In this document: in pieces, positions 16,896-31,435 of the stretch | Position numbering within the stretch: position 1 is the stretch's first letter | Layout of the letters: each line of letters begins with the position of its first letter | Source: an uncultured archaeon | GTDB lineage: Archaea > Iainarchaeota > Iainarchaeia > Iainarchaeales > DATDZZ01 | DNA: 32,000 nucleotides | Assembly: GCA_964373795.1 (NCBI GenBank) | Contig: CAYJVY010000001.1 | Coordinates: forward strand, 101,537 to 133,536 | Direction: 5' to 3' | Made by a program: the position numbers and the translations under genes | The notes under the pieces: model-generated | What the model was told of the DNA's origin: nothing | Database searches by the model: none | The model's input: only the letters and a program-made list of their open reading frames with translations

Positions 16896-17900
16896 TTGAC
16901 TTCCAAAATTTTAAAAGCAACAGCTTTGGCTAATGCAAATATTGCTTTAACAAAGTATTGGGGGAAAAGAGATAAAGCATTAATTCTGCCAATGAACGGT
17001 TCAACCTCGGTTTCATTAAATCATTTAAACACTATTACAACAGTGGAGTTTTCTGAAAAATTTAAAGAAGACTTTATTACTTTAAACGATGAAGAATTAA
17101 AAAAAGATGCAGCAGATATTGTAAAACATTTAGATCTTATTCGTGAAATGGCTGGAATAAAATTTAAAGCCAAAATGATTTCAACCTCTAATTTTCCAAT
17201 TGCAGCTGGCTTGGCTTCAAGTGCTTCTGGTTTTGCAGCTCTTTCTTTAGCTGCTTCAAAAGCAGCTGGCTTGGAGTTAAATGAAAAAGAATTATCCATT
17301 CTCGCTCGCCGAGGAAGCGGTTCCGCTTCCAGATCTATTCCAGGAGGATTTGTTGAATGGAAAAAAGGTGAACAAGCAGATGGTTTAGATAGTTTTGCTT
17401 ATTCTTTTGCTTCAAAAGATTATTGGCCTGAATTTAGAATGCTTACAACAATTTTAACTGAAGCTAAAAAGAAATGGAGTTCTAGATCTGGAATGGCTCA
17501 AACAGTTGCTTCTTGCAAGCTTTACAAGGGATGGCTTGACTCAGTTCAAGAAGACATTGAAGGATTAAAAAAAGCGGTTTTGCAAAAAGATTTTCAAACA
17601 GTTGGAGAAATAGCTGAAATGAATTGCTTGAAAATGCATGCAACAATGATTTCTACTAATCCTCCAATAATTTATTGGCAGCCTGCAACTATTTCAGTAA
17701 TTCATTCAGTTCTTTCTTGGCGCGATCAAGGCCAAAAATGTTTTTTTACTATAGATGGCGGTCCAAACGTTAAAGTAATTTGTTTAGCGCAAGACGCAAA
17801 ACACTTGACAAAAGAGTTGCTCGCAGTAGAAGGAGTAAAAAAAGTAATTGAATGCTCTCCAGGAGACAAAGCTCAACTCATTGAAAAACACTTGTTTTAG
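16896..17900 (+). CDS. mvaD: diphosphomevalonate decarboxylase family (MDD; substrate MVAPP versus MVAP not resolvable by eye)
   Basis: Motifs NIALTKYWGKRD, AAGLASSASGFAAL, RRGSGSASRSIPGGFVEW, MHATM and TIDGGPNVKV. TTG start preceded by GAGGTGA. Confidence 0.9.
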   Translation: MTSKILKATALANANIALTKYWGKRDKALILPMNGSTSVSLNHLNTITTVEFSEKFKEDFITLNDEELKKDAADIVKHLDLIREMAGIKFKAKMISTSNFPIAAGLASSASGFAALSLAASKAAGLELNEKELSILARRGSGSASRSIPGGFVEWKKGEQADGLDSFAYSFASKDYWPEFRMLTTILTEAKKKWSSRSGMAQTVASCKLYKGWLDSVQEDIEGLKKAVLQKDFQTVGEIAEMNCLKMHATMISTNPPIIYWQPATISVIHSVLSWRDQGQKCFFTIDGGPNVKVICLAQDAKHLTKELLAVEGVKKVIECSPGDKAQLIEKHLF

Positions 17901-26837: not shown

Positions 26838-27557
26838 ATGAGGCTTGTATTTGTTATTGGTTTACCTGGAACAGGTAAAACAACTGTTGGAAGAAAGCTT
26901 GCAAAACAATACAAATTACCTTTTGTTTCTGCTGGAGAGTGGATTAGAAGAGAAATGCGTAGAGAGACTGCTCTTGGAAGGAGAATGAAAAAAGCTCATG
27001 ATACAGGTAGATTGAATGATTTAGGTGATTTAAAAGAATTATTTATTTCAAAAATTTTTACTAATTTGAAAGGATCGAAAAAAATTCGACCCGAGTTCAG
27101 TAATGGATTTGTTTTAGAGGGTTTTCCTAGAAGCCTTGCAGGCCTTGAACTGCTTGAATCAATTTTTGGAAAACAATTAATTAGTATGGCAGAATTTTAT
27201 CATTTATTTACTCCAGTTAGAACAGCTGTTGAAAGAATGTTGTTTGAAAGAAAACGCGCAGACGATGTTCCAGAAGTTGTTGCAAGAAAAATAGCTATTT
27301 TTAAAGAAAGAACTTTTCCACTAGTTTTAGAGTTAAAACATAGAGGGCAATTAATTAGAGTGAAAACAGTTCATGCCGATCGTAGAAGTAAGCCAGGTAC
27401 TAGGTCCGTGGGAAGAGAAACAGCTGTAGAAAGGACTTTAGAATTAACTCAAGTAAACCTTAAAAAAATGAGGGCAAAAAAATTGCGAAAGCAAGAAATG
27501 AAAAGAGTAAAAAAACCAAATAAAGTTCAGCTGCCTAAACGAAGACCTAGAGCTTAA
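26838..27557 (+). CDS. adk: adenylate kinase (short-LID type) with a ~60-aa Arg/Lys-rich C-terminal extension
   Basis: P-loop GLPGTGKTT, then SAGEWIRRE, LEGFPRS and KRADDVPEVVARKIAIFKERT. The tail is RRSKPGTRSVGRE...KKMRAKKLRKQEMKRVKKPNKVQLPKRRPRA. Confidence 0.8.
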   Translation: MRLVFVIGLPGTGKTTVGRKLAKQYKLPFVSAGEWIRREMRRETALGRRMKKAHDTGRLNDLGDLKELFISKIFTNLKGSKKIRPEFSNGFVLEGFPRSLAGLELLESIFGKQLISMAEFYHLFTPVRTAVERMLFERKRADDVPEVVARKIAIFKERTFPLVLELKHRGQLIRVKTVHADRRSKPGTRSVGRETAVERTLELTQVNLKKMRAKKLRKQEMKRVKKPNKVQLPKRRPRA

Positions 27558-27946
27558 TCTTTTTTAATTAAGTTTTTGTATTTTTGAAATACTTGTTCTA
27601 CTTGTGCATGAGTTACATGGTTTTTGTGATGTCTAAATCCTCCTCCAAATCCTTGAGGAATATGCATTAATTCATGAATCAATGTTTTGATTTTTTCATC
27701 CTCGTTTTGCAAATCAAATTGTTCGGAAATTAATTCAATTGAATAAAACGGTTTTAACTGCATTCCTAGTTGCATTACTTTTTGCAGGGAATGAATTCTT
27801 GCAATTGTTCTCCTAGTCTTAGTTCCACTTGACTTAATACATGCAATTCTCTTAATTTGAATATGCTGAAAACCCAATGCTTCAATCAAGTTTCTGGTTT
27901 TCAAAGTCCATTCACTTGAATACTCGTATTTCATTTCATTCCCCAA
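27554..27946 (-). CDS. predicted zinc metallopeptidase (HExxH; SprT/COG4900-like)
   Basis: LIHELMHIPQGFGGGFRHH contains HELMH. It is preceded by the TRRTIARIHSL...FYSIEL pattern seen in small archaeal predicted metallopeptidases. Confidence 0.65.
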   Translation of the reverse strand: MGNEMKYEYSSEWTLKTRNLIEALGFQHIQIKRIACIKSSGTKTRRTIARIHSLQKVMQLGMQLKPFYSIELISEQFDLQNEDEKIKTLIHELMHIPQGFGGGFRHHKNHVTHAQVEQVFQKYKNLIKKD

Positions 27947-29500: not shown

Positions 29501-30154
29501 ATGAATGAATTAAAGCGAATAGAGAAATACATAAAAAAATATTCTCTTGGATTAATTGAAAGAAAAACCTCTTTAAAGCACTATAATGAATTGCTTGAAA
29601 AAATTGAGGAAGGCCTTTCATTTGAGTCACTGATTTCAGATTTTTTGGAAAAAAAACCGCTTGTTAGAGTGTTTGAAATTGGTTGTGGAGAAGCTCAAGC
29701 TTTAAAGGAATTAAAAGTAATTTTTAAAAACAAAGTTTTTGTTTCAGGAATTGATTTACTTGAAACGGATTTTCAGAACTTGGATGAATTAATTATTGGC
29801 GATGTATTAGAGCAAGTTTTTCCTCAAAACTGTGACATAATTTTTTCATTTAAATCTTTGCACGAAATCGGTTCAACTAAACAACTAATTGAAAAAATTG
29901 AATCCTCTTTAACAAATGGAGGAGTAGCAATTCTTTCCATTCGCGTACAAGAATTCAAGCAAGGCGAATTAGTTTTCCTTGGAGAGTTAACTCAAGAAGA
30001 CTTGGATTTTTTGAATTCAATTCTGCAAGCAGAAAAATTTAAGTCTTGCCTAGTTTCTGGAAGCAAGGTTTTCTTAGAATATAATGGAGTTCAATTTCTT
30101 GCAGGCATTAATTTAATTTTAATGAAGCAAGTGCAGTTCAGCCGGCGAGGCTGA
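29501..30154 (+). CDS. class I SAM-dependent methyltransferase; its 3' end runs into the GC-rich insertion and stops at TGA 30152-30154
   Basis: Motif I is VFEIGCGEAQAL, with later DIIFSFKSLHE and GGVAILS motifs. The last 5 codons (FSRRG) are encoded by the GC-rich element. Confidence 0.8.
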   Translation: MNELKRIEKYIKKYSLGLIERKTSLKHYNELLEKIEEGLSFESLISDFLEKKPLVRVFEIGCGEAQALKELKVIFKNKVFVSGIDLLETDFQNLDELIIGDVLEQVFPQNCDIIFSFKSLHEIGSTKQLIEKIESSLTNGGVAILSIRVQEFKQGELVFLGELTQEDLDFLNSILQAEKFKSCLVSGSKVFLEYNGVQFLAGINLILMKQVQFSRRG

Positions 30155-30375
30155 GTGCCCACGTGGGCATCGCGCTTGCCGCGCGAGACGGCAGCTGAAG
30201 GGTCACGTGACCCCTCGTGCTCGACGCACGAGACGTCGCAGCCGGCGAGGCTGAAGCTAAAGCCAATGAAGCTGAGCCAAGTGGTGGGTGTGAGTCAACA
30301 GTCAGCGGAGCTGAGGCAGGCGGCGAACATGAAGCCAGTGAGGTTGACTCGTGTTCATTGTGTGCAACCGCAGTT
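30139..30375. mobile_element. GC-rich island B: a 237-nt insertion bounded by direct repeats (MITE/REP-like element, foreign fragment or structured RNA; nature unknown)
   Basis: About 63% G+C by hand count over 30141-30380, against about 21% in 30421-30500. GCAGTT occurs at 30133-30138 and 30370-30375. The full GCAGTTGAGTGCC at 30370-30382 reappears at the left end, split by a 14-nt insert. CAGCCGGCGAGGCTGA occurs at 30139-30154 and 30239-30254. Confidence 0.55.
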
Positions 30376-30442
30376 GAGTGCCTTCGAATCATTTTGGTTA
30401 GTCGCGTTATTTTCTGAGTTAATCTCCATTAAAATGAAATAA
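30376..30442 (+). pseudogene. displaced AT-rich 3' tail of the methyltransferase ORF (..LSAFESFWLVALFSELISIKMK*), still in frame
   Basis: ORF 30155-30442 is in the same frame as 29501-30154 and is separated only by the TGA. Deleting 30139-30375 joins GTG CAG TT|G AGT GCC TTC... seamlessly. Confidence 0.5.
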
Positions 30443-30499
30443 CTTCATAATCCCTTTCTTTTAGTATCAAAAGGTTTATTAACACTAAAATAAAGAATA

Positions 30500-31435
30500 A
30501 TGTTGGATTTGACTATTATGTGTTTTAAGGCAAAGATATTATTTGTTTTATTTTTAATATTGTTTTGTAATACTTTTTTTGCAGAACCTACAAAGGTAAA
30601 AGTTGGAAGCTATATTTTGAATGTTGGAAATTTTGATCCTGCTTTAGGAACTTATGATTTGTCCTTCTATGTTTGGGTCAAATGGGATAAGGACATTAAT
30701 GGCTTTACTGCTGAAAATTTTGAATTAATGAATGCAAAAAATATGTCGCTTGAACTAATTGAAGAACTTCCCGGCTACAAATTTTATAGTGGTCAGGGGA
30801 CTTTTTTCCAAAAAATTGATATGGCAAATTTTCCTTTTGATTCGCATGAAATTTCACTTGAATTAGAAGACAAATTATATGATGTAACCAAGTTAGTTTA
30901 TGTTCCTGACACTAATTGGCTTTCCTCAGAGAACCCAGATATTGCAGTACTTGGATGGAAAAATAATGGCGCAAAAATAGAGTTTGTTGAAAGATATTAT
31001 GACACTTGGAACACTACATATTCAAGGTATATTCACAAAATCAATGTCTCAAGGCCTTTAATTGATTCACTAAAAGTTTTTCTGCCAATAATTTTTCTTT
31101 CATTGTTGGGATTTTTTACATTTCTTATAAACATTCGAAAATTTTCAGAAAGACTTTCAATGTCAGTTTTTACTTTCATGGCTGCTATTGCCTATCAAAT
31201 ACAAGTGAATGTAACAATTCCTCCATTGGGGTTTTTCACGATTGCAGACAAGGCAATGATTGCAATTTATGCAGGCCTTTTGTTTGCAACGATTTACACA
31301 ATTTATATACAATGGTATGAGGAGAAAAACAAAGAGGCAGTCGCTAGTAGGACAAACAAATTCGTGATATCATTTTATTTCATTTTCCAGCTGTTAGTAT
31401 TCTTAGTAATATTTGTTTTGGATTATCTATTTTGA
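30500..31435 (+). CDS. pentameric ligand-gated ion channel (Cys-loop receptor superfamily) homologue, prokaryotic type
   Basis: Signal peptide, then a ~190-aa beta-rich domain starting VKVGSYILNVGNFDPALGTYDLSFYVWVKWDKD. Carries the FPFDSHEISLELE loop motif, followed by four TM helices: FLPIIFLSLLGFF, ERLSMSVFTFMAAIAYQIQV, IADKAMIAIYAGLLFATIYTIYI and a C-terminal M4. Confidence 0.8.
   Translation: MLDLTIMCFKAKILFVLFLILFCNTFFAEPTKVKVGSYILNVGNFDPALGTYDLSFYVWVKWDKDINGFTAENFELMNAKNMSLELIEELPGYKFYSGQGTFFQKIDMANFPFDSHEISLELEDKLYDVTKLVYVPDTNWLSSENPDIAVLGWKNNGAKIEFVERYYDTWNTTYSRYIHKINVSRPLIDSLKVFLPIIFLSLLGFFTFLINIRKFSERLSMSVFTFMAAIAYQIQVNVTIPPLGFFTIADKAMIAIYAGLLFATIYTIYIQWYEEKNKEAVASRTNKFVISFYFIFQLLVFLVIFVLDYLF

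Follow-up and report, generated by a model that had tools for sequence, protein, structure and literature searches.

Has a methyltransferase gene of an uncultured Iainarchaeota archaeon been split by an insertion, or does it simply end where its reading frame stops? The question arises in a 32,000-nt stretch of contig CAYJVY010000001.1 (the window), in which the gene for a class I S-adenosylmethionine-dependent methyltransferase (MT; 29501-30154, + strand) is followed, directly after its TGA and in the same frame, by a second open reading frame (ORF; 30155-30442). The window has a GC content of about 31%, and the 237-nt block at 30139-30375, with a GC content of 63%, is the sole GC-rich island of its sort within the 32 kb. 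In a hairpin scan of the 32 kb, all perfect GC-rich hairpins with stems of at least 6 bp fell in this block, except two at 17249-17330 in the gene for diphosphomevalonate decarboxylase (MVD). The initial annotation described the block as a mobile or foreign element that had inserted with target-site duplication (TSD), truncating the protein and displacing its tail. We found that a distinct, repeat-like GC-rich element is indeed present at the 3′ end of the MT gene, but that no insertion splits the gene. On balance, we lean towards regarding the block as a palindromic repeat element that acts at the DNA level, akin to the GC clusters of yeast mitochondria or to the repetitive extragenic palindromic (REP) sequences and bacterial interspersed mosaic elements (BIME).

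The MT gene encodes 217 amino acids (aa) and matches the Pfam families Methyltransf_31, 11, 12, 23 and 25. When 1.84 billion representative proteins were scanned by HMMER with the “repaired” 234-aa MT, in which the displaced tail is rejoined, 83 relatives were obtained at E ≤0.001. The close relatives are mostly 195-220 aa long, and their alignments halt at query residues 205-210, which are the homologues’ own C-termini. Genomic homologues were retrieved with a 7-sequence alignment, which gave 32 loci, mostly in metagenome-assembled genomes (MAGs) of Candidatus Iainarchaeum. All 22 aligned homologues and all 32 genomic ones terminate in ...AG(I/V)N(L/I/V)x(L/F)EK plus 0-3 residues, so that the family end corresponds to K209 of the 217-aa MT (codon 30125-30127); the window protein ends in ...AGINLILMK(209)-QVQFSRRG*. 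Since the homologues end at K209 plus 0-3 residues, the predicted protein is complete and, if anything, lengthened by 8 residues, and the supposedly displaced tail matches nothing. A counterpart of the 22-aa tail is absent from all 22 aligned and all 32 genomic homologues, none of which aligns with the tail sequence LSAFESFWLVALFSELISIKMK, and a word-index search with the repaired 234-aa MT returned the 217-aa form only. The initial annotation had itself named a tail without homology as evidence against a split gene, and this is what the comparison of C-termini gave. The final 6 MT codons (QFSRRG, 30134-30151) and the TGA (30152-30154) are read from a repeated motif of the island, motif R. By these alignments, the island covers the position of the ancestral MT stop and leaves the catalytic fold unaffected. 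The last MT codons, ATGAAGCAAGTGCAGTT (30122-30138), match a decayed copy of the R core at 30329-30345 at 14 of 17 positions and in the same phase, and the extension past K209 may itself be old island sequence.

Removing 30139-30375 in silico does produce the continuous reading frame ...KQVQLSAFESFWLVALFSELISIKMK* that the initial annotation reported. Frame preservation is weak evidence, because a 22-codon open tail is expected by chance in 24-34% of cases in this sequence and two other deletions, of 30139-30254 or 30136-30254, also produce long ORFs (266 and 265 aa, respectively); in addition, the GC-rich DNA is open in two of three frames. A length divisible by three, which had been taken to indicate a recent or constrained event, is not diagnostic for the same reasons, and the 22-codon tail is most likely non-coding, judging from the homologues. 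Excision at the RNA level, which had been offered as an alternative, is not required for a protein that is already complete; the minimum free energy (MFE) fold leaves the junctions unpaired, and the region has no Rfam intron or ribozyme match. Three related candidates were rejected as well. An intein does not fit, since the 79 codons hold a stop after 5 codons and have no Pfam match; a bulge-helix-bulge (BHB) intron does not fit the MFE fold, which does not pair the junctions, although no dedicated BHB search was made; and a genetic code with TGA as a sense codon was discarded because long ORFs tile the window under table 11, with 8 of 30 ending in TGA.

The direct repeats that suggested a TSD are present as described. 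GCAGTT occurs at 30133-30138 and again at 30370-30375, and the longer 13-mer GCAGTTGAGTGCC at 30370-30382 has a left-end copy that is split by the 14 nt CAGCCGGCGAGGCT (30139-30152), themselves a duplicate of 30239-30252. Chance does not explain this split repeat, which none of 500 dinucleotide-preserving shuffles reached. On either side of the hairpin core of motif R stand GCAGTT and GAGTGCC. R is a sequence of about 28 nt with the consensus GCMGTT-CAGCC-GGCGA-GGCTG-AGTRCAC, that is, a 5-6-bp GC hairpin with fixed flanks. In the window, R reads GTGCAGTTCAGCCGGCGAGGCTGAGTGCCC (30131-30160, + strand) and takes in the left GCAGTT and GAGTGCC with the 14-nt insert between them. The island closes on the right with a terminal copy of R without the 14-nt hairpin core, GCAGTT-GAGTGCC (30370-30382, + strand). 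Because R is conserved at unrelated loci in other genomes, the flanking repeat is element sequence, in the form of one full and one core-less R, and not a duplicated host target. An intermediate form between full and core-less R, CAGTTGAG-CGAGGCTGAGTGCAC, is found at the locus of the closest MT relative (L051).

Both junctions of the block are carried, at 100% identity to the window, by Logan assemblies from two runs, which rules out a single-assembler mis-join at 30139 or 30375, an error that the initial annotation had proposed to look for. L001 (ERR3478686) and L002 (ERR4904391) end at 30165, and L003 (ERR3478686) begins at 30225 and continues across the right junction. The central stretch of 59 nt (30166-30224, + strand) is present in the source assembly alone and was recovered in neither Logan assembly; either the samples are polymorphic there, or these 59 nt are internal to a segment with multiple contexts.

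The window island extends over about 30131-30382 and consists of three parts: an intact hairpin module, decayed core copies and the core-less R copy. The intact module (30136-30254, + strand, 119 nt) was delimited by the hairpin scan, by repeats D1, D3 and D7, by alignment of its two units, U1 and U2, and by folding, and the GC content over 30139-30253 reaches 72%. It comprises, in order, the R hairpin (30139-30153), U1 (to 30191), U2 (30192-30238) and a second R hairpin core (30239-30254). U1, counted from 30139, is made up of CAGCCGGCGAGGCTGA, the palindrome TGCCCACGTGGGCA (30156-30169), the hairpin TCGCGC-TTGCC-GCGCGA (30170-30186) and GACGG. U2 is a diverged copy of U1 whose first hairpin has collapsed to CAGCTGA, and it contains the palindrome GGGTCACGTGACCC (30200-30213) and the hairpin CTCGTGC-TCGAC-GCACGAG (30214-30232); the second CAGCCGGCGAGGCTGA follows at 30239-30254. 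The two units stand in tandem and are homologous throughout, and their stems differ by 4 two-sided compensatory changes and 0 one-sided ones. The first half of the island folds with z = -3.0, a value beaten by 0 of 200 shuffles. A CRISPR array was rejected as a description of this part, since Tandem Repeats Finder (TRF) finds no array and U1 and U2 are homologous to each other.

The decayed part (30255-30369, + strand) holds four degenerate copies of CAGCCGGCGAGGCTGA, at 30260, 30299, 30317 and 30332, which match at 11-12 of 16 positions and are all in one phase; four such copies were reached in 0 of 5000 phase-preserving shuffles. This half has a GC content of 54% (30254-30375) and no significant fold (z = +0.1). 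Because these copies of an (NNG)5 core are in phase, a G-every-third-base signal arises in frame B (ORF 30217-30417) without coding. No Pfam match was obtained for the island frames, no protein homologue of five island frames was found at E ≤1 among 5.8 billion proteins, and exact look-ups of the 95-aa and 84-aa island ORFs showed that neither is on record. Rfam 15 gave nothing at gathering score on the window, with chrB-a as the best match (22.6 bits versus a threshold of 43.9). A second copy of the block was not found in the 32-kb window; blastn with the block gave zero matches among plasmids and merely 32-nt matches (E 0.3) among phages, and scans of viral contigs with motif patterns gave nothing or chance matches (contigs of 48-50% or 72% GC where checked). 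ARAGORN found no tRNA in the window, and neither TRF nor a bacterial-type promoter/terminator scan gave anything useful.

Motif R is not confined to the window. At the L051 locus, whose MT is 48% identical to that of the window and whose GC content is 35%, a hairpin island lies 650 nt upstream of the MT gene; the window island abuts its MT gene. An exact 12-mer, GTTCAGCCGGCG, and an exact 13-mer, CGAGGCTGAGTGC, are common to window positions 30136-30158 and the L051 island, and are unique in 311 kb of related sequence. A scan of 241 million metagenome records with GTTCAGCCGGCGRGKCTGAG gave nine contigs. Six of these, at 51-72% GC, were rejected as chance matches, and in each of the other three, at 34-36% GC (L085, L086 and L091), R opens a GC-rich hairpin island; L086 matches the L051 sequence. 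An nhmmer search with R recovered four islands only (E 5e-8 to 6e-6), and R was found in none of 31 other Iainarchaeota loci by exact k-mer matching or nhmmer. Between genomes with MT proteins of only 48% identity, 25-27 of the 28 nt of the motif are conserved. Islands of the family fold with z = -6.9, -5.6 and -4.9, the first value being that of the L051 island on either strand, and the L051, L085 and L091 islands have no Rfam match at E ≤1. Their neighbours differ: MT and a membrane protein in the window, DUF309 and dcd in L051 (and L086), TopoVI-A and a PPDK_N remnant in L085, and a geranylgeranyl reductase and a GSDH-like gene in L091. R abuts a stop codon in three cases, overlapping the MT end in the window and lying 0 nt past the TAA of TopoVI-A in L085 and 3 nt past a TAA in L094. 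ORFs miscalled over other islands were sought with the island translations, and no matches were found. Taken together, six island versions at four loci make up, on the strength of their shared motif, one family of GC-rich palindromic islands headed by R in AT-rich DPANN-type (Iainarchaeota-like) genomes.

In the two closest genomes, the island lies less than 1 kb from an orphan-like class I MT gene, with no other neighbour in common (L051:4485-4700 is the same sequence as L093:2135-2350). This proximity could be due to chance, to residual synteny or to a functional link; at the other MT loci (30), no island was found within 6 kb. In L085, the TopoVI subunit A gene (L085:116-1042) contains an intein-like segment (weak Intein_splicing match, residues 92-188), and a 63-aa remnant at L085:1224-1415 (-), which matches only the C-terminal end of PPDK_N (profile positions 255-312 of 328) and is an apparent pseudogene, abuts the distal edge of the island.

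The composition of the islands is modular and changes between close strains. The L085 island corresponds to the L091 island plus a 60-nt module, and the L051 island to the L085 island plus an 86-nt module; 36 nt are identical between the L051 and L085 islands, and past these the hairpins have the same TCCT loop and stems that differ by four compensatory pairs. A look-up of the L051 MT protein returned eight assemblies of that locus, five of which (L094-L098) reach upstream of dcd. The flanks in these five are 98.7-99.5% identical to those of L093, and at least three different islands occur among them. The first version (V1) is that of L093. In the second (V2; L095 and L098), the distal hairpin and linker are swapped, and the L098 island has at least 9 modules and exceeds 330 nt. 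The third (V3; L094) has a synteny break beside the island, with another upstream gene followed by a different island that carries a variant of R: L094:2225-2420 and L093:2120-2420 share 99.1% identity starting 39 nt upstream of dcd and are entirely different further upstream, where L094 encodes a 742-aa protein and L093 DUF309. Content thus differs at the homologous site of close strains, in three versions, and the R-proximal part at this locus is conserved while the distal part is variable. Over all comparisons, 9 stem changes were two-sided, 1 was one-sided (a G-T wobble) and 2 were mismatches, and some palindromes have centres of 0-2 nt.

The ends of the Logan contigs at the window locus bear on the same variability. 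Logan assemblies use k = 31. L001 and L002 end at 30165, which is 30135 + 30, and L003 starts at 30225, which is 30254 - 29; because unitigs from unique flanks stop k-1 nt inside a segment with multiple contexts, the repeated segment would be exactly 30136-30254. This interval opens with the first invariant base of R, closes with the last base of the second R hairpin and coincides exactly with the intact module. The alternative is a polymorphic interior at 30166-30224, whose edges coincide with no feature. Logan contigs also break at polymorphisms, since L097 begins right after a single-nucleotide polymorphism (SNP) that separates L093 from L095. Whichever reading of the break points applies, the window island is heterogeneous or repeated in the source samples; the initial annotation had listed population heterogeneity among its alternatives. 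A simple polymorphism in unit number, by unequal crossover between U1 and U2 or by deletion between the R hairpins, was rejected because it does not reproduce the contig ends. Contigs from several projects are broken inside islands, namely L001, L002, L003, L086, L095, L096, L097 and L098, among them a 65-kb scaffold with an L051-type island. In these short-read MAGs the islands break contigs systematically, and they are a source of contig ends and possible mis-joins.

How a palindromic repeat element of this kind would arise and change can be proposed from these features. In an island R comes first, and a variable series of short, perfect palindromes and additional R-like copies comes after it. 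At the DNA level, modules with hairpins would be gained by duplication, exchanged, turned round or lost, perhaps when templates switch, strands slip or palindromes undergo gene conversion with one another, and a trans-acting enzyme that recognises R may take part; old copies would decay toward the AT-rich background. In the window, R overlies the position of the ancestral stop, the MT now ending in QFSRRG-TGA within the R hairpin, and the island may also influence the 3′ end of the upstream transcript. A palindrome that acts as double-stranded or single-stranded DNA is favoured over an evolved RNA because the stems stay complementary with almost no G-U pairs and some centres measure only 0-2 nt. 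Modules in both orientations, strain turnover, the synteny break together with the pseudogene remnant, and the decay of copies also support the DNA-level reading, and the decay is polar, with intact units beside R and degenerate core copies further 3′.

Several observations weigh against a palindromic repeat element. The copy number looks low, with one island in 32 kb and three AT-rich contigs with the exact 20-nt R pattern among the 241 million metagenome records, whereas far greater abundance is typical of classical REP or GC-cluster families. No transposase, REP-associated tyrosine transposase (RAYT) or integrase was found in the window, an empty site was not found, and a second copy of the window module was not directly seen. 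The compensatory stems, the folds with z from -4.9 to -6.9 and the GC-richness within an AT-rich genome fit a structured RNA as well, and the position of the island near the MT homologue in the two closest genomes could mean that a functional locus has been inherited vertically. Polymorphism within 30166-30224 would account for the Logan break points as well.

In the main rival reading, the island might instead be a novel structured non-coding RNA (ncRNA) gene of Iainarchaeota-like archaea, with R as its conserved 5′ end (or 3′ end on the other strand), the hairpins as variable peripheral stems and an incidental overlap with the MT stop. Such a gene would show up as a GC-rich island against an AT-rich background, and the folds (z = -6.9, -5.6 and -4.9, and -3.0 for the first half of the window island), the compensatory stem changes and the conservation of R at 25-27 of 28 nt beside MT proteins of 48% identity all agree with it, as do the single island per contig and the few exact-motif matches, the occurrence in several members of A/T-rich stretches about 22-27 nt upstream and of oligo-T downstream, and the distance of less than 1 kb to an MT gene in the two closest genomes. 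The architecture, however, is not conserved: R alone is common to the four islands first found, L094 has a variant of it, and module content differs between strains with 99% identical flanks. An RNA would also not be expected to have perfect Watson-Crick stems with almost no G-U pairs and some loop-less palindromes, nor an orientation that is inconsistent relative to its neighbours and a genomic context that is different at each locus, and half of the window island is decayed and does not fold. With no Rfam family matching either, we regard an ncRNA gene as unlikely. Perfect palindromes, including the loop-less ones, would also be accounted for by arrays of scars at a site that is repeatedly cut by an R-specific nuclease or recombinase, where each cycle of break and repair, through hairpin-capped ends and fold-back synthesis, adds or replaces a palindrome beside R as a by-product of a host or parasite enzyme. 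Intact units beside R with decayed ones farther off, the synteny breakpoint and PPDK_N pseudogene remnant that adjoin islands, and the low copy number would follow from this too. It is nonetheless distinctly improbable in our view, since no candidate enzyme lies near any island, identical 36-nt modules at different loci and in different organisms require copying between sites, and at the L051 locus it is the R-proximal part that is conserved and the distal part that varies.

Insertion into the MT gene can be envisaged in two forms. In a variant of the original proposal, the MT would have read through an older, decayed island in frame B, with an acidic Ala/Glu/Gly tail to the TGA at 30415-30417, until a module of 116-119 nt (30136/30139-30254) was added and brought the present stop. 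Removal of 30139-30254 or 30136-30254 fuses the MT to frame B (266 or 265 aa), and the module edges fit the k = 31 logic of the contig breaks; in frame B, 51% of first codon positions are G and the GC content at third codon positions (GC3) is 40%, and a gene caller predicted this frame on L003. This periodicity is, however, explained by the in-phase degenerate (NNG)5 core copies, neither a homologue of the frame-B peptide nor an MT with such a tail was found, and frame compatibility would arise by chance in about 1/3 of cases, with 2/3 of the frames open there, so that we give this variant little credence. The model of the initial annotation, in which a 237-nt element (30139-30375) inserted with TSD, truncated the MT and displaced a 22-aa tail, and in which excision would restore the gene, can draw on direct repeats that are real and non-random, on a length of 3 × 79 nt and on a downstream frame that is open to 30442. 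We consider it very improbable, and by its own criterion it is refuted. The homologues end at K209 plus 0-3 residues without homology to the tail, the “duplicated target” is part of a motif that is conserved in the element at other loci, the repaired 234-aa protein retrieved nothing but the 217-aa form, and an open frame can be expected from chance and also follows from another deletion. Least credible of all is an artefact or a one-off foreign capture, that is, a chimeric assembly or a fragment of a GC-rich donor inserted by end joining. The sharp compositional contrast and the presence of the central 59 nt in the source assembly only would suit it, but both junctions were reproduced in two other runs, related R-bearing islands occur in independent assemblies of other AT-rich archaea, no plausible donor emerged from blastn against plasmids and phages, and exact-pattern scans of viral and metagenome contigs gave only chance matches outside AT-rich archaeal contigs.

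Among known systems, the palindromic repeat element that we favour comes close to the GC clusters of yeast mitochondria, which share a 13-nt 5′ end, have variable downstream sequence and undergo merger and shuffling; 403 such sequences with one 13-nt 5′ end were described in 18 strains (PMC4478555). Like these and the clusters of other fungal and protist mitochondria, the archaeal islands consist of short GC-rich palindromic modules in a very AT-rich genome, with a fixed 5′ terminal sequence, differing downstream modules that merge and shuffle, fast turnover between close strains, stems that are more constrained than loops, and a position in or beside genes. They differ in having an archaeal chromosome as host and unrelated sequences, in their apparently far lower density (one island in 32 kb) and in being arrays of modules headed by a 28-nt motif. 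Mobility in the form of presence and absence, as in mitochondrial GC clusters, has its counterpart here in content differences observed at the L051 locus, not at the window locus.

REP and BIME are imperfect palindromes, GC-rich and extragenic, whose stem adjoins a short conserved tag, and are mobilised by RAYT (TnpA-REP); they form mosaics in both orientations, often lie just past stop codons and can affect the 3′ end of the upstream mRNA. The islands, in contrast, have no GTAG or CGTC tag, the flank being GTT...AGTRCAC, no RAYT, IS200/IS605-type or Y1 transposase gene was seen among the window ORFs, and the copy number is apparently low and the host archaeal. Rickettsia palindromic elements (RPE), one kind of selfish in-frame insertion in ORFs, lie inside proteins as inserts that are read through in translation, and are closest to the idea of the initial annotation. 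As with RPE, a palindromic repeat overlaps a coding gene and contributes residues; unlike them, only 6 codons are read before the element’s own TGA, at the natural C-terminus and outside the fold. MITEs (miniature inverted-repeat transposable elements) resemble the window island as small non-coding elements flanked by direct repeats and possibly present in multiple copies. The island, however, has no terminal inverted repeats, a search showing internal hairpins only, R stands at both ends in direct copies, the flanking repeat is part of the element, and no cognate transposase was found. GC-rich ncRNA islands of AT-rich archaea have the same compositional signature and strong predicted folds, but the absence of an Rfam match and of a conserved architecture and the strain-level turnover of modules set the present islands apart. 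The islands resemble CRISPR arrays in a hairpin-forming motif of about 28 nt that begins with GTT and recurs within the island, and in their hypervariability between strains; unlike such an array, the island has irregular spacing, homologous palindromes between the motif copies and no cas genes, and the end that varies is the one distal to the motif that is best conserved.

Palindromic GC clusters in AT-rich genomes are already known from organelles and bacteria, while the small, reduced, AT-rich genomes of DPANN archaea are usually described as repeat-poor; in the searchable literature, we came across no report of elements like these in DPANN archaea. Somewhat short of probable, in our estimation, is the wider proposal that DPANN (Iainarchaeota-like) archaea carry undescribed, self-renewing arrays of GC-rich palindromes, in which modules are added, swapped and inverted beside a 28-nt motif while older copies decay, a counterpart of mitochondrial GC clusters with its own R-recognising machinery that remodels the 3′ ends of genes and marks synteny breakpoints. 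If the family is a true one, it would provide a marker of very recent genome dynamics in uncultivated archaea, at the level of strains about 99% identical in the flanks, and would be seen to rewrite the ends of genes, here the last six MT codons and the stop, and to coincide with a synteny break. It would also offer a tractable case in which to study the origin of palindromic GC clusters and their survival under strong AT pressure outside organelles. For annotation, the MT gene should be treated as intact, and the 95-aa and 66-aa ORFs of the island should not be called genes.

Downstream of the island lies an AT-rich spacer (30383-30499), which includes the 22-codon “tail” (to 30442) that has no homologue, and then a membrane-protein gene (30500-31435, + strand; the Logan gene call starts at 30518) with a weak Neur_chan_LBD match. 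In the synteny comparison, neither DinB nor this membrane protein was beside the MT homologue in any of the 32 loci. A tRNA-Ser(CGA) gene directly adjoins the MT homologue in two Iainarchaeota loci (L080:4709-4794 (-) and L081:5866-5949 (+)); the island does not resemble a tRNA. Immediately upstream of the DinB-MT pair, amid housekeeping genes, a 130-aa protein with a “putative phage metallopeptidase” domain (PF18894) is encoded at 27554-27946 (-). The 18-nt palindrome GGAAGCGGTTCCGCTTCC at 17313-17330 was considered as a stray module and rejected, as it encodes the conserved GSGSA motif of MVD. The window also holds, at 419-21891, a dense archaeal isoprenoid/mevalonate cluster, by which the host can be recognised as an archaeon, with genes for polyprenyl synthetase, HMG-CoA reductase, an HMG-CoA synthase/thiolase/OB-fold trio, two GHMP kinases and diphosphomevalonate decarboxylase, together with an FMN-dependent IDI-2-like gene.

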